Positions 5,026 to 50,871 of a DNA stretch of 64,000 nucleotides are shown piece after piece. A model generated the notes under the pieces. The model was not told where the DNA came from, did no database searches, and saw nothing but the letters and a program-made list of their open reading frames with translations. Position numbers and translations under genes: made by a program. The first letter of the stretch is position 1. Each line of letters opens with the position of its first letter. Source of the stretch: Patescibacteria group bacterium (GTDB lineage: Bacteria; Patescibacteriota; Minisyncoccia; Phycocordibacterales; UBA918); assembly GCA_039188945.1 (NCBI GenBank), contig JBCCYW010000002.1, forward strand, positions 26,449-90,448. The letters are read 5' to 3'.

Positions 5026-6831
5026 TTATACGTCACTTAGAGGAGAAGTTTCAGTTTGGTTATCGACAGGAGCAGTTACGTCGTCGGTCACATTTTCTAA
5101 ACCGACTTTTGTACCAAATGCATTCATTTCTTCGTAGGGAATCTTATGTTCGAGTGCTTTGATAATTGCATCTTCTTTCATCGTCATAAACCCATTCTCG
5201 CGAGCACTAAGAAAAATATCTTCTTCAGCGGCATTAGACAAAATCATTTCTTGAATCCGCTCATCAATCTCCAGCACTTCCATGATGGCGATACGCCCCT
5301 TCAAACCAGTCGCACACTGTGGTGAAGGTTCTGGGTGCATGATGGTATCAGCCTTAGGGATCGCACCCTTGAATTTGTCTGGCAAGGTACTAAATTCCTT
5401 TTGCATCATGACTTCAATAGCTTTATTAATTTTTTCTTCTCGTCCAGTGCCTTCACATAGTCGTTTCGCCAAGCGCTGTGCAATTGCCAATTTTAGTGTC
5501 GGCGCAATCAAATATGGGTCTACTCCCATATCAATGAGTCGCGGGATAACGCCAATCGAGTTGTTGGTGTGAATGGTAGAAAGCACCAAGTGACCGGTCA
5601 GTGCAGCCTGAATCGCCAATTGCGCAGTTTCTTTATCTCGGATCTCACCAACCATGATAATGTCAGGGTCCTGACGCAACGCAGCTCGCAAGCCGTGGGC
5701 AAAGGTGTAGCCAATTTCAGGACGTACCTGCGATTGACTCACGCCATCGATGTTATATTCCACCGGATCTTCAAGCGACAGCACATTTTTGGTAGCGCGG
5801 TCTACTTCTGACAGCATGGCGTAGAGCGTTGTTGACTTACCAGATCCAGTTGGACCAGAAATCAGCATGATGCCGTACGGCTCTTTAATCATTCGGCGAA
5901 TCACCTCGAGATGGTGTCCACCAATACCGGTGTCTTCAAGGGTCGTAACACCTTTTTCGTTATCTAAAATACGCATTACGACCTTTTCGCCGTGATTAGT
6001 TGGCAATACTGAGACACGGAAATCAATCTTACGCTCATCAAACGTAGCGGAGAAGCGACCGTCTTGAGGCTTGCGTCGTTCGTCCAAGCGCATAGAAGAC
6101 AAGATCTTAATGCGAGCCACCACAGCAGAGTGTGTCTTCTTCGGCAGTTCAAGACTGGTTGCCAGTGAACCATCAACTCGAAATCGTACTTTAATTTTTC
6201 CACCGGTTGGCTCAACGTGGATATCAGACGCTCCACCATCTACTGCGTATCGCAAAATAGTGGCCACGATCCGAGTGACGGGCGCGTCTTCTTTAATATG
6301 ATCAAGGTCTTCTTTTGGGAGATCTTTCTCCTCTTCTGCCCGGCGGGCGATTTCTGCATCAAGATCATTTTCTAGAGTAGTGAGTGCTTCACCAACTTCT
6401 CCACTGAGGTTTTCATAAAATGTGTGAGCGGCTTCGATATCACTATCGAGCATGAAGTGCAACTTGTACGGCAAATTATGCTTGGTACTAATATAGTTGA
6501 GCACTTCTCGGACTTGTAGATCGTCTGGATTATTACTCCCCACCAACAGCACATCATCCTCAATTTTCAGTGGCACAACCCGATAATGGCGAGCCGACTC
6601 TTCAGGAATGTACCCCAGCACACCTTCGGCCAAGCGCACACCTTCGGGTAACTCATAACTTGGCACCTGATAGTATTCAGCAATTTGTTCGCGCACAACA
6701 GATTTCTCAAGACCCATGTCGAGAAGCGCCTGCTCCTCGCTAATGCCCGCATTAGTGATGGCCGCCCTGACCTCCTCCGCCTGGGCTTCACTGATGACTT
6801 CATGTTCAATTAAGAAACTGAGTCGATCCAT
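5026..6831 (-). CDS. pilB: Type IV pilus assembly/extension ATPase PilB (GspE family)
   Basis: 601 aa. N-terminal GspII_E domain, Walker A GPTGSGKST, and a tetra-Cys-like region. Confidence 0.9.
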   Translation of the reverse strand: MDRLSFLIEHEVISEAQAEEVRAAITNAGISEEQALLDMGLEKSVVREQIAEYYQVPSYELPEGVRLAEGVLGYIPEESARHYRVVPLKIEDDVLLVGSNNPDDLQVREVLNYISTKHNLPYKLHFMLDSDIEAAHTFYENLSGEVGEALTTLENDLDAEIARRAEEEKDLPKEDLDHIKEDAPVTRIVATILRYAVDGGASDIHVEPTGGKIKVRFRVDGSLATSLELPKKTHSAVVARIKILSSMRLDERRKPQDGRFSATFDERKIDFRVSVLPTNHGEKVVMRILDNEKGVTTLEDTGIGGHHLEVIRRMIKEPYGIMLISGPTGSGKSTTLYAMLSEVDRATKNVLSLEDPVEYNIDGVSQSQVRPEIGYTFAHGLRAALRQDPDIIMVGEIRDKETAQLAIQAALTGHLVLSTIHTNNSIGVIPRLIDMGVDPYLIAPTLKLAIAQRLAKRLCEGTGREEKINKAIEVMMQKEFSTLPDKFKGAIPKADTIMHPEPSPQCATGLKGRIAIMEVLEIDERIQEMILSNAAEEDIFLSARENGFMTMKEDAIIKALEHKIPYEEMNAFGTKVGLENVTDDVTAPVDNQTETSPLSDV

Positions 6832-37830: not shown

Positions 37831-38277
37831 ATGAGTGATTTAGCCCGTAACCGCAAAGCCACGTTTGATTACGAAATTCTCGACACCTTCGAGGCTGGTT
37901 TGGTATTAACCGGCCATGAAGTCAAAGCAATTCGCAATGGCAAGCTTAAACTAGAAGGTTCACACGTGGTAGTTCGGGGCGGTGAGGTGTTTTTGGTCGG
38001 TACAAATATCGCTCCCTACCAACCCGCCAACGCTCCCAAAGACTACGACCCTGAACGCACCATCACCCTTCTCCTCAATCACAAAGAAGTGGCTCAACTA
38101 GAAGCTAAAAGCGAACAACGTGGCTTGACAATAGCACCAATTCGTTGTTATAATAAAGCCGGAAAAATCAAGCTTGAAATCGCTATCGTGCGTGGTAAAA
38201 AGAAGCAAGATAAGCGCGAAACGATCAAGGCACGCGATGTCAAACGCGACATCGAACGAACGTTAAAAAATCAATAG
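37831..38277 (+). CDS. smpB: SsrA-binding protein SmpB
   Basis: KATFDYEILDTFEAGLVLTGHEVKAIR and a basic C-terminal tail. tmRNA lies 1 kb downstream. Confidence 0.9.
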   Translation: MSDLARNRKATFDYEILDTFEAGLVLTGHEVKAIRNGKLKLEGSHVVVRGGEVFLVGTNIAPYQPANAPKDYDPERTITLLLNHKEVAQLEAKSEQRGLTIAPIRCYNKAGKIKLEIAIVRGKKKQDKRETIKARDVKRDIERTLKNQ

Positions 38278-39243: not shown

Positions 39244-39637
39244 GGGGATGACAGGCATCGACGGTTAGCGGTTTAAATATATGTGCAGTGTCGCAGCTGA
39301 ATACTGACTGCGTTACAACAGTGTTCACTTGTACGTGCAAAGAATAGCGTACCAAGCCCATACGCCAAGGCGTTTGGCTTCGCTCCCGCTGTAGCGTAAC
39401 TCTACGCTCGCCGAAGCGACATCAGACTACCCCACTTCTCATAAGGTAGCCCTGGTGTAATAACCATGAGAATATAGTCAACGATTGGTCAGGTCGTTGA
39501 TCGAATTTCTTATGACTCGAACCTAACGTGTTTTGTTACTTCTCAAGCTTTAGGTTTTAAATCAAAGGAGTGACTACGCACTGTAGACTCATGTATTTGC
39601 CCTAACTCGGACGGGGGTTCAACTCCCCCCATCTCCA
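39244..39637 (+). ncRNA. ssrA: tmRNA (ssrA), one-piece
   Basis: 5' GGGGATGACAGGCATCGACGG (compare E. coli GGGGCUGAUUCUGGAUUCGACGGG). The 3' tRNA-like end is GGACGGGGGTTCAACTCCCCC-CATCTCC-A, whose acceptor strand pairs with the 5' end. Candidate tag ORF GCA AAG...GTA GCG TAA encodes (A)KNSVPSPYAKAFGFAPAVA. Confidence 0.8.
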
Positions 39638-41152
39638 CATACTGGGAACCTTTAGACGGTTTCTGCTTAAATAACCTTACTGGTATTGATAGATTTCCGG
39701 TTCCAAAACCATTTTCTGGACTATACGTGATAGGTTCGTTAAAGACTAGTTTTAGAACTAGTCTTTTTCGTTGAAAATCACCTTCTATCCAGTATTTGCT
39801 TGGATTCTTCAATATAGAAAATACTGCCTGTAATGCGGTTCCAAAATCTTCCTCCTCTACATTAGATTTCTTAGTTGCAGCCAGTAGTTTTTGTCTCTCA
39901 TCATCTATTTCTTCTACGCGCTTCTCATAAGCTCTCGCCACCTTTTCCTTGTCAGCACCGGCTACTCGACTGATTAACCTGTTCTGTTCTTCATCTAGTT
40001 CCTTCAACTGTCTATGAGCTTTGTTGATCTTTGCTTTTAGTTGAGCCGCCCGACTATTCCACTCTTCAAGAAAGATAGCTTCTACTAGTCCCGTCGCATT
40101 TTCTGAAGGTTGTAGTTTCTTAAGTAAGGAAACAAACTGTTTTTCCATCTTATGACCATTGAAACTCTTCTTGCAGCTATCGCAGTTCTTTTCGTTTCTA
40201 CCTCGATAGTACGGATATTTTTTTGTCCTACCCACACTCCAACTAGCCGTCATTGGAGTACCGCATGCTTCACAACAAACAAACCCCTTAGTGGAAAGTC
40301 TGGATTATCATTCTTTCGCTTCTTGAGTATCGGTTTACCAGCAACTATTGCATCCAATTTCTCCAGAATTTCGTCATTGATAATTGCTTCATGGTGACCC
40401 TTTCTCCTATCAATATCCCATTTTGGATACTCAATATAGCCAGCATACAAAACTCTTCTTTCAATCAACCTATCGACTAACGATAAGTGTATGGCCTTTC
40501 CATCCTTGAAGTCATGTCTGGTTAGGAAATTTTTCACTTCAGTCCTACTCAGAAACCTTCCGTTTGCAAAACCCTCAAGTGCTTCAAACACTAGAACGGA
40601 CTTTATTTCATCCTTAACCAAGAGCCACCCACCCAGAGCGTGCTGCTGGCGTTTATAACCAGGTATAACAGAACCAAAAGTCCAGTACCCCTTTTCCATA
40701 CGAGCTTTCATTTTTTGTATTACCTGAACTCGATTAGTTCTTCTTTCGTTTTCATTAAATACAGCAGATATGGCCTCATGTAACCAGGTACTTTCATCAT
40801 CCTTGAATTCAAAATTTGGGGAATCAACAATGGCTCCAAGTTTTTTAAAATGATCCCTGAGTTGCCAGTGACTAATAGTATCTCTGGCTAACCTTTTTAA
40901 ATCATCGAAAATAACCACATACTCTTTGTGTCCGTTGTCAGCAATATACTCCAGCATTTCAGCCATCTTTGGTCTCTTCATGTAGTCACCACCGCCAGTG
41001 AAACTGTCAGGAAACACACGCTCAACCTTATATCCAAGTCTAGCTGCGTATTCGCGGCACCTATGTTCTTGGCTATCAAGACCATGTCCGTCATTCTTTT
41101 GACGTTCAGATGAAACCCTACAATAAATTAAAGCCTTCCTTTCCATAATCAA
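39543..41152 (-). pseudogene. Large serine recombinase, split by a frameshift
   Basis: 40250-41152 encodes the resolvase catalytic domain (ALIYCRVSSERQ, catalytic Ser) and recombinase domain. 39543-40253 encodes the zinc-ribbon CxxC...CxxC and coiled-coil region in another frame. The junction lies in aaggggtttgtttgttgtg, where frame A reads GLFVV* and frame B reads GFVCCEACG. The last roughly 30 codons are antisense to the tmRNA 3' end. Confidence 0.75.
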
Positions 41153-41476: not shown

Positions 41477-41815
41477 CTAGTTACAGTTTGTTGCTTCAGA
41501 TTTACCGACAGTGTACGTTCCATTTGAACCATTTTGAATACTCTCTTTCTCCTCTGGCAAATATGCAAACACTGTTACCTCATCGGCATTTAAAAGATAT
41601 TTGTCCCGAATGAAATCCAATGTTCGCTGATATGCTCCTGAGTTATCGATGACAACATACACTGTTTCTCTTTTACATCCAGGATATGAATCATCTCTCA
41701 CTGTTACAACCTCGTAGTCCAAAGGTTTAAACGTGCTTGTGGAGCCCAAATTCTCGTTCTGGGACTCTGGAACTAGTGAACCTATAAAGATAGGGCTAGT
41801 ATCCCAAACGTGCAA
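41477..41815 (-). CDS. Hypothetical protein (island cargo)
   Basis: 112 aa. First gene of the minus-strand island operon. No family recognised. Confidence 0.35.
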   Translation of the reverse strand: MHVWDTSPIFIGSLVPESQNENLGSTSTFKPLDYEVVTVRDDSYPGCKRETVYVVIDNSGAYQRTLDFIRDKYLLNADEVTVFAYLPEEKESIQNGSNGTYTVGKSEATNCN

Positions 41816-42011
41816 TATATAAATTTTTTCATGGTTACCGGCTTATTGTTTCTAAAGCACTATAAAACCCTCACCAAGGTTTTATAGTCCGAAGACCAGC
41901 CGGTAACCAAACACAGCCCTTGATGAGGGGTTTATAAGTTTGGTTACCGGCTTTATTCAGTTGTGAGTAGATTATGCCATAGTAATTCATGATTTACACT
42001 TTTAGTGTATA

Positions 42012-43217
42012 GTGTCCTTCATGAGCTTCTTCAATGAAGAAAACGTTCCTGGATTCATTCCTAAAGTTATGGACGGAAAGATAACTGAGTGGACTGATGG
42101 TATGGACTTCTTAGCGATTGATTTAAACCACGTGAAATGGCGTGGGAATGTTCTACCGTTATTGCGTGACCATACACCAAAACTACTTGTTGATCCTGTG
42201 ACTCACAAGGCGTTCTTTTCTGACGCAAAATCAAAAACAAACTTCCAAAAAATTGGCTATCCTGATATCGAACCTGAGTTACTGTATTCGGAAAAACGTC
42301 ACCGTTCTGAATTTATTGAACTCTCAGTGAATGAACAATTGACTGCGGGAGCAAATGCCATAATTGCACCCTACCTATACACTCCAGACACAGACGACAC
42401 AAAGTTTGCAGTTAATTTAACTCTGCTGTCAGAGACTTTGGTCTACCTGGAGCAAAACGAGATTGATTTACCAGTATTTGCAAAAATTTGTACTCACTCT
42501 CAAATACTCACCAGACAATTAGTTATTAACAATATCGTCAGTCGATACTGTGATGACTACTCTGATAGATTGGAAGGTGTCATACTGAGCATCACTGATT
42601 TCGATGCGAGAAAGAACGATTTACCTCACCTTCTTGGTCTAGCTAATTTGGTACACCAACTTCAAGCACGCACTAAAGTTCTTCTATCTCCGATGGGTGG
42701 TTACGGGGAGGTCTTGTTGGCTTTAGGGGCAGCAGCTTTTTCGAGTGGCATCCATGAAAGTGAAGGGATTACAGTCAAACAGCTCCAAGAAGGGTCTGGT
42801 GGTAGTGAACATATTCACCAACGCATCTATATTCCGGAGATTTTAAATTACATCAACTACGAGGAAGCTGCAAAAATTGGCTACGTGGGTACCTCAACTG
42901 GTTGCAACATTGACTTTAATGATTCTGAACCATCTGCGGAAACAAAAAAGAGACACTATTTAAACAACAGAGTAGCTACAATCGCTACACTTAGAGGAAA
43001 AAGTCGGGAAGAAAAAATCAATTTGATGATTGGTAGTATTTCTTCTGCACAACGATTGCTCACAAGATATATTAGAGACCATGAACTTCTAGTAAGAAAT
43101 GACTTTCACGCGCGCTGGATTCAAGTACTAGAGCAAGCTCGAACTTGGAGCGATCCAGAAACAGACAATGAAGAACTTGAGGCGTTATTAGCAGAAATCG
43201 ATAAGTCAGATGATTAA
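42012..43217 (+). CDS. Hypothetical 401-aa protein, upstream partner of the PIN protein
   Basis: No recognisable catalytic motif. Predicted cytoplasmic. Its stop overlaps the PIN gene start by 8 nt, suggesting translational coupling. Confidence 0.5.
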   Translation: MSFMSFFNEENVPGFIPKVMDGKITEWTDGMDFLAIDLNHVKWRGNVLPLLRDHTPKLLVDPVTHKAFFSDAKSKTNFQKIGYPDIEPELLYSEKRHRSEFIELSVNEQLTAGANAIIAPYLYTPDTDDTKFAVNLTLLSETLVYLEQNEIDLPVFAKICTHSQILTRQLVINNIVSRYCDDYSDRLEGVILSITDFDARKNDLPHLLGLANLVHQLQARTKVLLSPMGGYGEVLLALGAAAFSSGIHESEGITVKQLQEGSGGSEHIHQRIYIPEILNYINYEEAAKIGYVGTSTGCNIDFNDSEPSAETKKRHYLNNRVATIATLRGKSREEKINLMIGSISSAQRLLTRYIRDHELLVRNDFHARWIQVLEQARTWSDPETDNEELEALLAEIDKSDD

Positions 43218-43671
43218 GATTGTTCCAGACACAAATGTCTTAGTGGGGAGCATGCTTGGCGGAGGAGGACCGAAGCGTTGGGTAATCAATCTAGCTCTCG
43301 AGAAAAAAATAGCTCTCTATGGTTCTTCGGTCTCTTATGCTGAATTTATGGATGTCATTCAGCGTGAAGAATTCAAACCATATCTTGAGAAGCAAATTTA
43401 TACTGTTGAGAAATTAGAGCATGACTACAAATCAGTCATTACGATAGTTGATACTGAAGGTGTTTATGAAGGAATTACCATTACTGAAGACCCAGATGAT
43501 GACGAATACTTTAGAATCGCAAAAGCTGAAGGAATAAAAGTTATTGTTTCTGAAGATAACCACTTAAGGAAAGTAGGGAGATACGAGGATATTAGAGTAG
43601 TGACAGCAAAACAATTTACAGACTCCTACATCTCAGCTATCGCAAAGACTGAACATCCTTCTTCAAACTAG
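43210..43671 (+). CDS. PIN-domain protein (putative toxin-antitoxin toxin component, PIN family, TIGR00305-like)
   Basis: IVPDTNVLVGSML first acidic motif, ITEDPDDDEYFRIAKAEG, and IVSEDNHL: conserved Asp/Glu positions of PIN nucleases. Confidence 0.7.
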   Translation: MIKIVPDTNVLVGSMLGGGGPKRWVINLALEKKIALYGSSVSYAEFMDVIQREEFKPYLEKQIYTVEKLEHDYKSVITIVDTEGVYEGITITEDPDDDEYFRIAKAEGIKVIVSEDNHLRKVGRYEDIRVVTAKQFTDSYISAIAKTEHPSSN

Positions 43672-44320
43672 CGCTCCAAAAATACTCTGAGGCGTAATCC
43701 CTTTTATTTAAATTGAAAGGCGTAATCCTTTTTGCAGCGACTGGATAATACTTCGCTTCAGTATCAACATCGAAACCAATCAGCCCAACTCCATACTTCC
43801 TAACTTCTGATACTGGTATGTTTTTAATTATCTTACTAGGTACCGCCAAATAAGATCTATGTGCGAATGATTTATAACGAGCAGCCTGCTGTAGACCTTT
43901 TTTCCAATCATGAAGTTTTGCTTCAATAGCAATGAGTTCTTTCGATATAGGTAGCCATCCGTTAATTTTCAGATAGTAGCTTTTTTCCACCTCTCGAATA
44001 TATCCAGCTTTTTTTAGCCTCGGGATAACAGAGTACCTCAATGTTCCTCTGGACATTGAGATTTGTGCTTCGATTTCTGAGATATGAGTTGGTACATCCG
44101 TATGTTCGTAGTCGGCAATCTTATCCAGAATTTTAAAGTAGTTCTCACTGAGAAGTCTCGTGTGTTGATTATGTCCTAAGCGCTTCAATACCTTGCCTCT
44201 GTTGGGTTTAAATAAAACTAAATCAGCAATTCCATAACCAACACCAACCTCCCGATTGGTGTAAAAACCATCTTTAATGAACTGTTTTTCTAATTGCCTA
44301 ACGAAAAATGCTTCGGTCAT
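43637..44320 (-). CDS. PD-(D/E)xK-like nuclease-fold protein with a possible inserted winged helix
   Basis: GIADLVLFK and LIAIEAK segments resemble motifs II/III of Hjc/restriction-endonuclease-like folds. By-eye assignment only. Confidence 0.35.
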   Translation of the reverse strand: MTEAFFVRQLEKQFIKDGFYTNREVGVGYGIADLVLFKPNRGKVLKRLGHNQHTRLLSENYFKILDKIADYEHTDVPTHISEIEAQISMSRGTLRYSVIPRLKKAGYIREVEKSYYLKINGWLPISKELIAIEAKLHDWKKGLQQAARYKSFAHRSYLAVPSKIIKNIPVSEVRKYGVGLIGFDVDTEAKYYPVAAKRITPFNLNKRDYASEYFWSASLKKDVQSLR

Positions 44321-44334
44321 ACAATGGCCATTAC

Positions 44335-44826
44335 TTATACTCTAACATTTTGACTAATTACAGGTGAGACAGTTGTATACACTGGCTCAGAGTGCGAAAA
44401 TTCATTCGGCATCTTCCACTTCAAATACGCCAAAGCTGCCCGCCAGTCTCCCTGCATCGTGAATGCATCAATAAATGCCTTCCTTGCTGACAACGTGGGT
44501 GTCATCCTGAAACTTTCGAGAGTGTTGCGAAATTCAGGATGTTTAGCACTAAAGCGATAGAATGAATCTCTCGAAATACCTGCGTAAAAACAAGCCTCTG
44601 TTACTGTGCAGTCGATGGCGAACGCACGTGCCAATTTCACAACAACTACCCCCGGGTCTACCCCTCCGAACGTCTTTCTACCTCTAGTGGTATTACTCGG
44701 TGTTGACACACATTTATCGGTTACTGCATCGGTGCAGTAACGTATAGTTCTATCTAACTCTTGGAGAGTTAGTATTCTATTACTAGTATGTGTATGTAAT
44801 GGAGTACTAATATCAAGCAAATACAA
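44335..44826 (-). CDS. HTH DNA-binding protein (phage terminase small subunit-like HTH)
   Basis: EACFYAGISRDSFYRFSAKHPEFRNTLE resembles the HTH of phage TerS/P27-type proteins. Confidence 0.35.
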   Translation of the reverse strand: MYLLDISTPLHTHTSNRILTLQELDRTIRYCTDAVTDKCVSTPSNTTRGRKTFGGVDPGVVVVKLARAFAIDCTVTEACFYAGISRDSFYRFSAKHPEFRNTLESFRMTPTLSARKAFIDAFTMQGDWRAALAYLKWKMPNEFSHSEPVYTTVSPVISQNVRV

Positions 44827-44979: not shown

Positions 44980-46113
44980 CTAGATTTCTCTCAAAATATC
45001 TACCAGCTTTCTATTGACGTAAACTTTCTGTTTTTTGAAAGTCCCTGAATGTTCGATTACTCCAAGTTTTTCTAATATCTCTACGTAACGCTGAACAGTA
45101 GACGAAGGGATATCAGTGAATCTAACAATAAATGGAACAGTGAAGAAAGGATTGCAGAAACTGTAATCCAGGACTTTAATCAAGTTAATGTTTGTTGACT
45201 GAGCAGTCGCTTTTTCAAAAGCATCTTTATAAAGCGAATCAATTTTTAACACCAACTGTAGTGAAAGTTCTGCCTGAAACTGAATCCCCTTCAAGAAAAA
45301 CAGCAACCATGTCTTCCACTCCTCCTTTTTATCAACCTTAGAAAGTGCATCCATGTAATCACTTTTATTTTCTTCAAAATAACCACTTGGATACAAAATC
45401 GGCATATCAAGTAACCCTTGATCAACCAAATAGAGAGTGATTAACAGCCTACCGACACGTCCGTTACCATCTTCGAAAGGGTGAATTGCCTCAAAGCGAT
45501 GATGAATAACACCACACGCAACTAAAGGATTAGTCTTACCTGCATCTTTTACATATGAGGATAGTACTTCCATCATTTTTGGAACATGAACAGGATCTGG
45601 CGGTAAATAACGTGCTTTACCTTTACTTGTTCCCAACTTACCAATCCACACCTCTTTCTTCCGATACTCTCCAGGACTTTTATCTTCACCTCTCACACCA
45701 GTCATTAACGTCTTATGCATTTCACGAATTGCCATTTCATTTAACCCATACTTCTTCAGAGCTACTAACCCCTTCCTCATTGCAGACTCATAGTTTCTAA
45801 TCTCTAAAGCATCATTTCGCTTCTCAGCGGTCTGCTCAGTAAGATCAATTTGATACGCGTCTACAATGGAGGCCTGAGTTCCCTCAAGCTGAGAACTTGA
45901 CTCTGCTTCCTTTGCAAGAATAGGTGCCATAAGTAAATCAGGGTTCTGTAATAACCTTGAAGTTTGTAACAAACTCTTAACAGCACCCTGTGTTTCTGCA
46001 AGTTGATTCGCAAAATCTTCATCATAGATTTCACCTAACTTTGGAGGGAAAACGTGTTCTAAAAGTGTTTTTGACATTAACCCGAATATAGCATTTTCTG
46101 GGTTAATTGTCAC
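44980..46113 (-). CDS. Fic-family protein (AMPylase/adenylyltransferase), class II with N-terminal inhibitory motif
   Basis: Fic motif HPFEDGNGRVGR. Inhibitory-helix motif SSQLEG matches [ST]xxxE[GN]. C-terminal winged-helix extension. Confidence 0.85.
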   Translation of the reverse strand: MTINPENAIFGLMSKTLLEHVFPPKLGEIYDEDFANQLAETQGAVKSLLQTSRLLQNPDLLMAPILAKEAESSSQLEGTQASIVDAYQIDLTEQTAEKRNDALEIRNYESAMRKGLVALKKYGLNEMAIREMHKTLMTGVRGEDKSPGEYRKKEVWIGKLGTSKGKARYLPPDPVHVPKMMEVLSSYVKDAGKTNPLVACGVIHHRFEAIHPFEDGNGRVGRLLITLYLVDQGLLDMPILYPSGYFEENKSDYMDALSKVDKKEEWKTWLLFFLKGIQFQAELSLQLVLKIDSLYKDAFEKATAQSTNINLIKVLDYSFCNPFFTVPFIVRFTDIPSSTVQRYVEILEKLGVIEHSGTFKKQKVYVNRKLVDILREI

Positions 46114-46341
46114 ACATTAACTCATAACTGGGTTGATCTCAACTCATCGACCCATAAATACAAAAATCTGACTTGGTGTTTAAAGTCTAAGAAGTCATTG
46201 ATTGTATTGCGATTTAACCAATTTTCTATATATTGGTTTAGGGTGCACAGATCTCCACATAACGGAAATTAAAAGCTAGCTTTATGCTGGCTTTTAATTT
46301 TGGTGTAGTATAGAAAATACAATAATACTTTTGACTGCATT

Positions 46342-47361
46342 ATGAACAACCCTCTTCTTAACGGCCTTCTAATCTTCTCGATCCTCCTCGCGCTGGCCTG
46401 GGTCGGAGGCGATATTTTACTGCCGGTCATTTTCGCCTTCCTCTTATGGGTGATTATCACTGCCTGGAATAAACAATTTGCCAAAATCACCTTCCACGGA
46501 AAGTTTATTCCTCGTCGCCTGCAGAATGCTCTCTCATTTATTGCATTCATTGGTATTTTGTTTGTCTTAGCCAACCTACTTGCTTTTGACTTACAACAAT
46601 TCAGCAACGTCTACCCAGAGCTTGAAGCCAACCTCGAGGAGCGAGCAATCAGTATTGAAGCAGCGATTGGCATTAATCTTACGGCACTGGTGGAAGATAA
46701 TCTCGCGACTGTCGATTTTCAAAGCGTCGCAGCCAACGTCGCCAATGCAGCCACCTCCCTCTCCACCACCATCTTCACGGTTTTGGTTTACTTACTCTAT
46801 ATCTTTGGTGAACAAAAATACGCCCAAGCGAAACTTAAGGCGGCGAGCGGAGACGAATATGAATCACAACACGCGCTTTTTTCTGACATCATCGCTAGTA
46901 TCGAGCAATACATAAGTATCAAAACCGCGATCAGTGCCCTGACTGGACTTCTCTCTTATGGAGTAATGTTGGCGGTAGGTCTTGAATTTGCCTTTGTCTG
47001 GGCATTTATTATTTTCATTATGAACTTTATTCCTAGCATCGGTTCTATTATCGCTACGATTTTCCCCGTCGCTTTTGCGTTTGTGAGCTTTAGCACCTGG
47101 TGGCCAGCCCTAGTGCTGCTGATTGTTATCGGTGCCATTCAGCTCTACGTTGGGAATGTACTTGAACCAAAATATCTTGGCAAAAAACTTAATGTGAGTT
47201 CGTTGCTACTATTCTTCTCACTGTTTTTCTGGGGTGCAATCTGGGGTATTCCTGGCATGTTTATCTCTGTGCCTCTGACCGTCATCATTATGATTGTCCT
47301 CTCGCGTATTCCCGCCACTCGTTCGATTGGTATTTGGATGTCGGGCGATGGAGTGGTGTAA
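46342..47361 (+). CDS. AI-2E family transporter (PerM/YhhT, UPF0118)
   Basis: 8 TM. Conserved NFIPSIGSIIATIFPV and GNVLEPKYLGKKLNVSSLLLFFSLFFWGAIWGIPGMFISVPLT. Confidence 0.8.
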   Translation: MNNPLLNGLLIFSILLALAWVGGDILLPVIFAFLLWVIITAWNKQFAKITFHGKFIPRRLQNALSFIAFIGILFVLANLLAFDLQQFSNVYPELEANLEERAISIEAAIGINLTALVEDNLATVDFQSVAANVANAATSLSTTIFTVLVYLLYIFGEQKYAQAKLKAASGDEYESQHALFSDIIASIEQYISIKTAISALTGLLSYGVMLAVGLEFAFVWAFIIFIMNFIPSIGSIIATIFPVAFAFVSFSTWWPALVLLIVIGAIQLYVGNVLEPKYLGKKLNVSSLLLFFSLFFWGAIWGIPGMFISVPLTVIIMIVLSRIPATRSIGIWMSGDGVV

Positions 47362-49814: not shown

Positions 49815-50549
49815 CTACAATAGCGCGTCTCCTAGAATTTGGTCGAGTTTTTTTAGATCATTTGGTTCAACACCGATGAGTTGCAATTCTTTTTCTTGAT
49901 AGAGTGCGGTTTTTTCCTCTCGATCTTTTTGGTAACGTCGGTCGGTCAGTCCCCAGAATTCGATAAAGTATCCATCTGTTACTTTAGAGCCACCTGGAAT
50001 ATAAAAATCACATCGCTTTACCCCAAGCTCTTTTAAAAATGGTTCGTAGGCATGGGCAATACCGTGTTGATACAGCCAATTATCAATTTCTAATTCCCCT
50101 TTACTGCGCACAAAATGGCCATCGTCAGTAACGTACGAAAAATCATCTGAACTGTCAGGCAATCGCTCATCTTGGATGAGTAGTGAATTGATAATCGAAA
50201 CTTGTTCATCATCAAGTCGAGCGGGTGGATACTTTTTAAACCGTAGAAGATGCCAATAGTCTTGACGAGAAATCGGTTTGTACTCTTTTACCCGTTTCAC
50301 TCGAACTTGCCATGGGAAGCTGCGGCCACTAGTTTCCCAGGCGTCAGGTTCAATATTCATCGCTCCATCCGATACAGCTTCAAAAGCCCCATGAATTTTC
50401 TTGGTCTGATAATTGAAAAGGAATAAGGTATCCCCAGCTCGTACTTCACCAGTTTTCTTTTCGTAGCCCTCCATGCCACCAAACAGTTCCCGCTCGAGAC
50501 ACTCTTGTTCGGTTACTCGTGAACACAGAAATACGTGACCTACTTTCAT
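49815..50549 (-). CDS. DCD (development and cell death)/PUA-like domain fused to a DUF559/Vsr-like restriction-endonuclease-fold domain
   Basis: N-terminal GHVFLCSRVTEQECLERELFGG...GDTLFLFNYQTKKIHGAFEAVSDG...WQVRV matches the DCD domain blocks. C-terminal ELEIDNWLYQHGI...KRCDFYIP...GYFIEFWG resembles the DUF559/Vsr endonuclease core. The internal ATG is chosen because the TTG-extended track ORF overlaps the DUF1059 gene. Confidence 0.5.
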   Translation of the reverse strand: MKVGHVFLCSRVTEQECLERELFGGMEGYEKKTGEVRAGDTLFLFNYQTKKIHGAFEAVSDGAMNIEPDAWETSGRSFPWQVRVKRVKEYKPISRQDYWHLLRFKKYPPARLDDEQVSIINSLLIQDERLPDSSDDFSYVTDDGHFVRSKGELEIDNWLYQHGIAHAYEPFLKELGVKRCDFYIPGGSKVTDGYFIEFWGLTDRRYQKDREEKTALYQEKELQLIGVEPNDLKKLDQILGDALL

Positions 50550-50628
50550 GCTCGCACTATACTGATATCTAAAAATAAAGCAAAGAGCGGCCAACAAGTT
50601 GGCCGCTCTTTGCTTTTTAACTTCCACC

Positions 50629-50871
50629 TCACTCAGCGTCCTCTGGAGCATCGTCAAACGCCTGCTTGTACGAAGCGAAGGCTTTTTGCTGCTCTTCTGG
50701 TGATTTACTTTTCATTGCTTCCATCATAGCGATGTAGTCTTCATTGCCCGCCGCGATCATTTCCATCGCGCGCGCTTTGCATTTTTCTGCTACTTCTTCG
50801 AAGGTTTCTCCAGATACTTGAAAGTCGTCGCTCGCTGGACAACCCAAGTCTCGTACATATACAGTTTTCAT
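50629..50871 (-). CDS. DUF1059-family small protein
   Basis: MKTVYVRDLGCPASDDFQVSGETFEEVAEKCKARAMEM matches the DUF1059 N-terminal pattern. Confidence 0.6.
   Translation of the reverse strand: MKTVYVRDLGCPASDDFQVSGETFEEVAEKCKARAMEMIAAGNEDYIAMMEAMKSKSPEEQQKAFASYKQAFDDAPEDAE

Follow-up and report, generated by a model that had tools for sequence, protein, structure and literature searches.

The fold of the tRNA-guanine transglycosylases (TGT) is known as an immune component from two systems. DpdA, of the Dpd systems, writes 7-deazaguanines into DNA, and Cap10, of the type IV cyclic oligonucleotide-based anti-phage signalling systems (CBASS), handles a nucleobase-protein conjugate; both illustrate the recruitment of TGT homologues into defence (PMC12839542; bioRxiv 10.1101/2025.04.06.647259). 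PIN toxins of the PIN_3/TIGR00305 family belong to VapBC modules, in which they are paired with a DNA-binding antitoxin of less than 100 aa, VapB, whose tail fills the active site of the toxin. The anticodon nucleases PrrC and RloC are encoded within type I restriction loci. In the present work, we studied a locus carried by a 64-kb stretch of a Patescibacteria contig (JBCCYW010000002.1; this whole stretch is called the window in the following). An initial annotation, made from the letters alone, had seen in this locus a two-gene system composed of an unknown 401-aa protein (gene A) and a PIN nuclease, placed under a repeat-rich divergent promoter. A convergent nuclease gene (gene C) is in fact the third member of the system and the one that accompanies the large protein most constantly. 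The three genes represent a three-component family that is unannotated and of wide distribution; a repurposed TGT fold is at its centre, and its output exists in two variants. This family is probably a conflict system, devoted either to defence or to addiction. The more precise reading that we favour, to which we tentatively give a little less than an even chance, is that of a conserved three-gene conflict cassette, candidate for anti-phage or abortive-infection activity, carried on small mobile islands and working through the mechanism proposed below.

Gene content and conservation of the cassette

In the window, gene A (42021..43217, + strand) encodes a 398-aa TIM-barrel protein that is, by its predicted fold, a divergent member of the TGT superfamily. 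Its open reading frame (ORF) can be read from a GTG at position 42012 (42012-43217), which gives the 401-aa version proposed initially. The start was placed at the ATG at 42021 (MSFF...) because a deposited NCBI protein (P0001; 398 aa, 100% identical, labelled 'hypothetical protein', from a Patescibacteria metagenome-assembled genome, MAG) and all homologues begin there. The PIN gene (43210..43671, + strand, 153 aa) lies where it had been positioned. Its ATG is located within ...GATGATTAA, so that the 8-nt overlap with the stop of gene A, also reported initially, is exact. Gene C (43637..44320, − strand), which had been missed, encodes a 227-aa nuclease of the PD-(D/E)xK type, into which a winged helix-turn-helix (HTH) is inserted. 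It is convergent with the PIN gene and the two 3′ ends overlap by 35 nt. Just past the PIN stop, within the 3′ part of gene C, two copies of AGGCGTAATCC(C)TTTT lie 28 nt from each other (43690-43733), possibly by chance.

Related loci were collected by a metagenome scan anchored on gene C, and pooling of all loci gave 81 non-redundant ones; a search of the genome collection with gene A (alignment A1) yielded 3 loci. Gene C is accompanied by PIN and by a gene A-like gene, a composition called the triad hereafter, at 44 of the 81 loci. The initial annotation had left room for the case where homologues of the large protein would never co-occur with PIN, and this is clearly contradicted by these 44 loci. 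Twelve loci associate gene C with a fusion of a Ser/Thr kinase to a gene A-like domain, with no PIN, and three others carry gene C, a gene A-like gene and a separate kinase. The contig ends at nine loci showing gene C and a gene A-like gene and at two loci showing gene C and PIN. Gene C stands alone at nine loci, three of them with more than 1.5 kb of room, and it was not seen at two loci. A Hanks Ser/Thr kinase is therefore present at 15 of the 81 loci, all PIN-less, and is usually fused N-terminally to the TGT-like domain.

If one considers the 71 loci where gene C is present with at least about 400 nt beyond its 3′ end, or with a partner already visible, a TGT-like gene accompanies gene C in 68 cases, the kinase loci devoid of PIN included. 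Because these kinase loci keep both genes, the invariant core of the system is made of the gene A-like gene and gene C, and PIN is one of two alternative third components. The same three genes are found with the same geometry in every related locus with enough sequence. The junction between gene A and PIN ranges from −20 to +8 nt, from stop to start, in 36 of 37 non-redundant triads; the idea that both genes form a translationally coupled unit is thus borne out, and this unit is conserved. At the other side, the 3′ ends of PIN and gene C overlap by 4-29 nt in 35 of 36 triads. Matrices of pairwise identities between the three proteins are correlated (r = 0.86 for A-PIN, 0.85 for A-C and 0.76 for PIN-C; Mantel test, 0/999 permutations), and the correlation holds down to 23% identity for gene A. 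Therefore, the triad moves and evolves as one unit. It is found in several phyla, among them Patescibacteria, Omnitrophota and Bacteroidota, as well as at one locus labelled Gammaproteobacteria.

Particular arrangements were observed at some loci. Gene C is co-directional with the TGT-like gene, instead of being convergent, in L068, L087, L091 and L100. In L100, an IMG/VR 'viral' contig, gene C, a kinase gene and the TGT-like gene follow each other in a row. The Gammaproteobacteria-labelled MAG (L012, CAZYXQ010000007.1) and a Patescibacteria MAG (L014, JAMCSY010000004.1) share one block in which HsdS and the triad are accompanied by two further proteins, a Zn-ribbon protein of 110 aa and another protein of 180 aa; L014 adds a large serine recombinase to this block. 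This common block points to horizontal transfer or to mis-binning.

Both nucleases of the triad look catalytically intact, as judged from their conserved residues. The PIN protein matches PF13470 with 38.5 bits (cut-off 27) and TIGR00305 with 37.7 bits (cut-off 29.15). Both scores exceed the curated cut-offs, in agreement with the family first assigned. Its four acidic active-site residues, Asp7, Glu45, Asp97 and Asp116, are the same in all 38 orthologues. Comparison of the PIN profile with the sequences of the PDB gave nothing meaningful, and the gene C profile found no match there. The 90 database homologues of gene C are all of about 225-230 aa and unannotated. The structure model of gene C (predicted local distance difference test, pLDDT, 95.7) has a restriction-endonuclease-like fold and matches PD-(D/E)xK nucleases (SPO1766, XisH-like, PaqCI, NucS, AF1548, Can2 and HindIII), and its inserted domain matches winged-helix proteins. 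The catalytic signature, made of Asp33 (GYGxADLV) and of Glu133-x-Lys135 (AIEAKL), is invariant in 42 homologues and in 38 of 38 triads. Glu24, Gln145, Arg148, Tyr149 and Glu212 are invariant as well.

The PIN part of the cassette resembles VapBC by its four acidic residues, by the upstream and overlapping partner gene and by its carriage on mobile DNA. The acidic C-terminal tail of the partner (see below) could also fill the PIN active site, as VapB tails do. However, this partner is a 398-aa TGT-fold TIM barrel and not a small DNA-binding antitoxin, a third gene encoding the PD-(D/E)xK and winged-HTH nuclease is conserved with the pair, and sister systems have a kinase and no PIN. The cassette therefore lacks two of the defining features of VapBC, since it has no small DNA-binding antitoxin and is not a two-gene unit. 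The initial proposal of an atypical toxin-antitoxin (TA) with a large antitoxin or sensor stays a live reading for the A-PIN part, but it does not extend to the whole cassette.

In the sister type, most of the fused kinases checked keep the HRDLKPxN and DFG motifs. The nearest matches of the fused kinase domain are two defence kinases, PD-T4-6 and mad6 (PADLOC models, E ~1e-61), and this domain is the sole part of the sister type to match PADLOC models. No model of PADLOC-DB 2.0 was matched by gene A, PIN or gene C of the window, nor by distant members of the TGT-like and gene C families. The likeness to PD-T4-6, a single-gene Ser/Thr-kinase defence system, is thus limited to the kinase domain of the sister type and does not concern the PIN-type cassette. 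Unlike PD-T4-6, the sister type adds a C-terminal TGT-like domain and a convergent nuclease gene, for which PADLOC has no model.

Fold and active site of the TGT-like protein

Gene A has no match in Pfam, NCBIfam, PADLOC or PHROGs. The absence of recognisable motifs, as noted initially, holds at the level of hidden Markov models but not at that of the fold. An AlphaFold2 model, obtained from an 8-sequence alignment, displays a TIM barrel (pLDDT 78, predicted TM-score 0.81) having the (beta/alpha)8 fold of the TGT type. The top fold match is a tRNA-guanine transglycosylase. DpdA is among the top matches, and QTRT2, a non-catalytic tRNA-binding paralogue, also matches. Hence, the large protein, first left without fold assignment, is a divergent member of the TGT superfamily according to its modelled fold. 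At the sequence level, comparison of gene A profiles with the PDB gave no better than an aldo-keto reductase (E 0.74, alignment A1) and ArcTGT (E 0.21, alignment A4), the latter on the Zn motif. The Pfam TGT profile (PF01702) does not match the window protein and is reached, weakly, by only two of the 69 family members (best E 2e-4).

A word-indexed homologue search retrieved only 8 close relatives of gene A, and its repetition with a 26-sequence profile added little. The tiny family suggested by this search was corrected by an exhaustive profile search, which gave 353 cluster representatives at E <= 1e-3 and 51 at E <= 1e-30. One member (P0019, 466 aa) shows a DnaA N-terminal domain ahead of the TGT-like domain, which is either a real fusion or a chimeric gene call.

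Most family members keep, at about 290 residues from the start, a CxCxxC...H motif with its conserved His, which is the zinc signature of TGT. It aligns with CSCPVC...H of ArcTGT. In the window protein, this region reads GTSTGCN...H312, so that the last Cys and the His remain and the zinc signature is incomplete. The first two cysteines have been lost in the own clade of this protein.

For the mapping of active-site residues, the E. coli Tgt reference sequence was checked and found 100% identical to that of PDB 10fa/10fb. When the gene A profile is aligned globally with the TGT of E. coli and of Z. mobilis, the two remain collinear along 325 columns; the hhalign probabilities are 9% for the local alignment, with a single TGT sequence, and 69% for the global one. 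GVDAIICG of a bridging family member (P0137) aligns to GIDMFDC of TGT, and PxFIPK of the gene A family to TPxFMPVGT. In these low-identity alignments, Asp58 of gene A corresponds to TGT Asp102 (the column contains 58 D and 9 N out of 69), a 5-residue deletion spans the FDEC segment that holds Asp156, and the nucleophile Asp280 (D280 in Z. mobilis, D279 in QTRT1) corresponds to Ala238. The nucleophile column varies across the family (S24, A11, T9, N7, D6 and K5 of 69). In contrast, Gln106, Pro117-Tyr118, Ser242, Glu248 (acidic in 60 of 69), Tyr270 and Glu273 are conserved. Because of the mapped changes, replacement of Asp280 by Ala238 and deletion of the Asp156 segment, gene A would be unable to use the canonical TGT mechanism. 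It is predicted from these residues to be either a binding subunit, in the manner of QTRT2, or an enzyme endowed with a new chemistry.

The C-terminal end of the protein deserves attention. An acidic tail (about 377-398) is specific to the PIN-type proteins, in which profile matches reach positions 392-398. In the kinase fusions, profile matches stop at about 367-382, at their own C-termini, which indicates that these fusions do not have the C-terminal helix. In the model of gene A, the tail consists of a linker with pLDDT below 50 followed by a separate helix (384-396). By analogy, this acidic tail resembles what the toxin-binding tail of a VapB-like protein would look like, and it may be taken as a clue in favour of the silencing of PIN. 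No DNA-binding domain was detected in gene A.

These features can be compared with those of the described TGT-fold proteins. As in the Dpd systems, a TGT-superfamily barrel is found here in a genome-conflict context with nucleases, and the Zn motif is present in most of the family. On the other hand, the cassette has no DpdB (ParB-like ATPase), no DpdC (DUF328), none of the DpdD-K restriction genes and no preQ0 synthesis genes nearby: Dpd genes were found neither in the island of the window, nor in the gene lists read individually, nor among the 25 most frequent neighbour families, and no PADLOC Dpd model was hit. Gene A also departs from DpdA itself by its Ala238 at the nucleophile position, by the lack of the Asp156 segment and by its failure to reach the Pfam TGT profile. 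Cap10 is TGT-like as well and holds a nucleobase-conjugated CD-NTase (bioRxiv 10.1101/2025.04.06.647259). It has retained the catalytic Asp (D248) as well as the Asp-Ser and Asp residues that read the base, and works with a QueC-like protein, Cap9, and with the CD-NTase; none of these is found in the cassette, and neither CD-NTase nor QueC-like Cap9 is present in the window, in the individually read lists or in the 25 neighbour families. Finally, QTRT2 takes part in eukaryotic tRNA modification together with a catalytic TGT subunit. The cassette has no such catalytic partner, and the partners found in it are nucleases or a kinase. Since the nucleophile is not conserved, the Zn site is lacking in the window protein and the companion genes are absent, gene A stands outside the TGT, DpdA and Cap10 functional families. 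More generally, no described system was matched in the libraries searched, as expected for the uncharacterised module suggested by the initial annotation. In the literature searched, we found no architecture combining a TGT-like protein with PIN and a PD-(D/E)xK nuclease or kinase, and no combination of a TGT-like protein with PIN.

Islands, neighbourhoods and the intergenic region

In the window, the gene order is FtsH, SmpB (37831-38277), the transfer-messenger RNA (tmRNA) gene (39244..39640, + strand), a low-GC stretch and an AI-2E transporter gene at 46342. The sequence ATCTCCACATA, present at the 3′ end of tmRNA (39631-39641), is found again at 46251..46261 (+ strand), which is the likely right boundary of an island starting at the tmRNA 3′ end. 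A 6.6-kb island is thereby delimited, with a GC content of about 0.38-0.42, compared to 0.44-0.53 on either side. The mobile location proposed initially is therefore supported by a small island and, as seen below, by defence-type neighbourhoods. The cargo consists of a serine recombinase, two small ORFs, the triad, an HTH protein resembling a terminase small subunit and a SoFic-like Fic protein. The recombinase (39543..41152, − strand) is split into two ORFs of 236 and 300 aa (39543-40253 and 40250-41152) overlapping by 4 nt, and related recombinases in L002 and L014 are encoded in one piece (504 and 609 aa, respectively). The split could be due to a frameshift or to an assembly error, or the gene could be a pseudogene. 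The lower of the two ORFs overlaps the 3′ end of tmRNA. The HTH protein (44335-44826, − strand, 163 aa; phrog_4102, 6.7e-8) is encoded on the strand of gene C, directly upstream of it, and no counterpart was found in the related loci. The Fic gene (44980..46113, − strand; Pfam Fic and Fic_N, PADLOC SoFic 1.2e-101), two genes away from the cassette, encodes a member of a known family of defence candidates, with a hint of a C-terminal winged helix. A Fic gene also occurs near a distant triad, in L015/L016. Further along the window, a 280-aa protein (49815-50657, − strand) carries a Development-and-Cell-Death domain (DCD, PF10539, 2.6e-27), unusual in a Patescibacteria genome. DCD domains are known mostly from plants and are among the PUA/EVE-like readers of modified bases.

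Elsewhere, the cassette is also associated with mobile elements and with restriction. In L008 too, the triad comes after SmpB and tmRNA, without a recombinase in between, and at some loci it adjoins tyrosine or serine recombinases. In a set of 149 non-redundant flanking proteins, the Pfam families encountered most often are those of restriction-modification and of integrases or recombinases. The triad is co-oriented downstream of type I genes in L007, with a 4-nt gap after HsdR, and in L014, with a 4-nt overlap with HsdS; in L012, HsdS is located 69 nt upstream. Type III genes precede the triad in L035 and L039, and lie on the opposite strand, beyond gene C, in L017. Other neighbours are type IIG enzymes (L015, L050/51 and L057), a Dcm-RadC fusion (L056) and a helicase-REase (L065). 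As for PrrC and RloC, an RNase module is thus found beside or within restriction operons (L007, L014, L035 and L039), which suggests a back-up to restriction. The cassette differs from them by the absence of an ABC-ATPase and of the PrrC nuclease domain, by a linkage to restriction that concerns a minority of loci, and by the additional, near-obligate DNase.

Three cultured species, Priestia megaterium, Kocuria rosea and Kineococcus radiotolerans, carry the kinase type on plasmids, where the genes are annotated only as kinase, hypothetical or 'BadM/Rrf2 regulator'. In P. megaterium, the pair is on plasmid p6_CACC119 (WP_322552809 and WP_322552810). In K. radiotolerans (L103, plasmid pKRAD01, NC_009806.1, 8032-8793), it is the gene C homologue that is called 'BadM/Rrf2 family transcriptional regulator', probably a mis-annotation driven by the winged helix. 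No gene C homologue was found in phage GenBank records, and two IMG/VR contigs contain gene C. Among the viral structures of BFVD, no close relative of gene A was detected (TM <= 0.42). A phage origin is not supported, because of the lack of gene C in phage GenBank and of a close gene A structure in BFVD.

The divergent intergenic region upstream of gene A (41816..42020) contains a locus-specific array of repeats and hairpin. Two direct copies and one inverted copy of the repeat had been described, and they are real: the exact 10-mer GGTTACCGGC has three copies in the whole window, two direct and one inverted, all within 41833-41951. The copies extend to 12-15 nt, TGGTTACCGGCTT being present twice and AGCCGGTAACCAAAC and GTTTGGTTACCGGCT forming a perfect 15-nt inverted pair. 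Copy 1 (TGGTTACCGGCTT, 41832..41844, + strand) and copy 2 (GTTTGGTTACCGGCTT, 41938..41953, + strand) flank the inverted copy (AGCCGGTAACCAAAC, 41898..41912, − strand), which can pair with either of them. The hairpin ACTATAAAACC / GGTTTTATAGT (41859..41888) is also real, with an 8-nt loop and a perfect stem that has 11 bp rather than the 10 bp first counted. The region folds better than shuffled sequences (z = −7.1 for the + strand and −6.2 for the − strand; equalled by 0 of 200 shuffles). An Rfam scan revealed no RNA family in the intergenic region, with tmRNA as the only hit nearby, and a scan for promoters and terminators was uninformative. A 112-aa divergent ORF (41477-41815, − strand, TTG start) shares this region and has no family match. 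It was rejected as a part of the cassette, since its homologue was found in no related locus.

The repeats behind the notion of a tightly regulated operator, put forward initially, are real and non-random at this locus. As a feature of the family, the operator had to be rejected. The motif was not found in the 11 related loci compared, the upstream regions of other loci hold their own unrelated repeats or palindromes, and gene A abuts restriction-modification genes at several loci, without a promoter region of its own. For these reasons, the array is a property of the locus in the window and not of the system. It might be bound by the winged helix of gene C or by the HTH protein of the island, or it might correspond to a structured 5′ leader RNA. 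Upstream of gene A in a distant triad, L015 shows a perfect and locus-specific 40-bp palindrome (5835-5874; TAAAACATTCTAACATTCTA / TAGAATGTTAGAATGTTTTA).

Proposed mechanism and alternative explanations

Considering these properties, the following mechanism may be envisaged. The TGT-like protein would be a nucleic-acid-recognising and regulatory subunit, whose remodelled active site would no longer perform canonical base exchange. It would form a physical complex with PIN and hold it silent, probably via the acidic C-terminal helix, like the tail of a VapB antitoxin. It would act together with the gene C DNase, encoded convergently, and the third and exchangeable enzyme attached to it would be either the PIN RNase, through translational coupling, or a Hanks Ser/Thr kinase in an active form. 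Upon sensing of an invader, both nucleases would attack its DNA as well as cellular or invader RNA. The signal might be a foreign or modified nucleic acid accommodated in the old base pocket of TGT, or the loss of the neighbouring restriction system.

Several points weigh against this scheme. The mapping of TGT residues derives from low-identity profile alignments (local 9%, global 69%) and not from structural superposition. The conservation of Asp58, Glu248 and Glu273 is suggestive of a possible enzymatic activity of gene A, in place of mere passive sensing. The role given to the C-terminal tail is deduced from the distribution of this tail only, and function, trigger, target and interaction are all deduced from genomics. 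By a conservative count, restriction-modification neighbours occur at only about one quarter of the triad loci. Housekeeping genes flank many loci, and a selfish addiction module would fit too. Finally, PIN and the kinase are on opposite sides of the TGT-like gene and, therefore, they may not be functional equivalents.

A first alternative, unlikely but to be taken seriously, is a system akin to restriction-modification. Gene A would act on DNA, by DpdA-like insertion or by base removal, gene C would be the cognate endonuclease, and PIN or the kinase would be accessory. TGT-fold enzymes do act on DNA in the Dpd systems (PMC12839542), and DpdA is among the top fold matches. The restriction-endonuclease fold of gene C, which resembles PaqCI, NucS and HindIII, and its DNA-binding winged helix point in the same direction. 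So does the invariant core formed by the TGT-like and nuclease genes, and convergent gene pairs are common in restriction-modification systems. In the model, the conserved Asp58, Glu248 and Glu273 would be at the catalytic face of the barrel, suggestive of catalysis. This explanation is nevertheless at odds with the lack of conservation of the TGT nucleophile and of the Asp156 segment. In addition, QueC/D/E, FolE, DpdB and DpdC are absent among the 25 most frequent neighbour families and the individually read gene lists, and the tightly coupled PIN RNase as well as the active protein kinase are left unexplained.

In a second alternative, the cassette would be an addiction TA stabilising the mobile island, with gene A as an oversized antitoxin of PIN, gene C as a separate regulator or nuclease, and no sensing of an invader. 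PIN_3/TIGR00305 is indeed a toxin family, gene order and overlap are those of antitoxin-toxin pairs, the cassette travels on integrative islands and plasmids, and the acidic C-terminal tail is confined to PIN-type proteins. Yet, such a module accounts neither for a conserved 398-aa TIM barrel with conserved pocket residues, nor for a near-obligate gene C with invariant catalytic residues, nor for kinase variants that have no PIN but keep the TGT-like protein and gene C. Moreover, gene A does not have the DNA-binding domain that serves the autoregulation of type II antitoxins. As an explanation of the whole, addiction appears rather unlikely.

A third possibility, to which we would give about the same small weight, is that the TGT-fold protein is a novel type of invader sensor or enzyme. 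Having lost base exchange, it would still flip and read, or hydrolytically excise, a particular base, thereby licensing the DNase together with the RNase or the kinase. Candidates for this base are the 7-deazaguanines that many phages install via their own DpdA.

The fold can also be considered from the tRNA side. A tRNA-directed abortive-infection nuclease, guarding restriction in the manner of PrrC and RloC, would use the recognition of the anticodon loop, inherited by the TGT-like protein from its ancestors, to deliver PIN to tRNA once the neighbouring restriction enzyme is disabled. The best fold match is a tRNA-guanine transglycosylase, QTRT2 matches too, most of the family has retained the Zn subdomain, and VapC-type PINs commonly cut tRNA. 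In L007, L014, L035 and L039, gene A comes directly after restriction genes of type I or type III, an arrangement reminiscent of prrC, which sits inside the EcoprrI locus. This model is however very doubtful, given that linkage to restriction-modification is found at a minority of loci, that the invariant partner is a DNase-like winged-helix protein and not an RNA enzyme, that Zn cysteines are lost in the clade of the window, and that the residues of the TGT base pocket are largely not conserved.

As to a housekeeping operon for nucleic-acid metabolism, such as divergent tRNA modification or repair, that would happen to sit on islands, the mostly housekeeping nature of the TGT superfamily and the ordinary genes flanking many loci speak for it, but it is highly improbable in view of the patchy distribution, the presence on plasmids, at tmRNA and on islands bearing integrases or recombinases, the missing canonical catalytic Asp, the coupling to a toxin-family PIN and to defence-type kinases, and the movement of the triad as a unit across phyla.

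Returning to the three-gene conflict cassette, several consequences can be drawn. Because neither Pfam, NCBIfam nor PADLOC has a model for it, annotation pipelines miss or mislabel this family, the existing labels being 'serine/threonine-protein kinase', 'BadM/Rrf2 regulator' and 'hypothetical'. After DpdA and Cap10, the cassette family would be the third independent recruitment of the TGT fold, this time with the nucleophile lost, locked to a restriction-fold nuclease and wired to a PIN or a kinase. If the base-sensing variant is true, it would represent a form of immunity derived from TGT and dependent on modification (type IV-like), in which PIN and the kinase are outputs that can replace each other, and it would span from bacteria of the candidate phyla radiation to plasmids of cultured Bacillota and Actinomycetota. 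The plasmid relatives in cultured P. megaterium, K. rosea and K. radiotolerans make the family directly testable. In Patescibacteria, of whose immune repertoire little is known, the cassette provides a defined candidate defence system.

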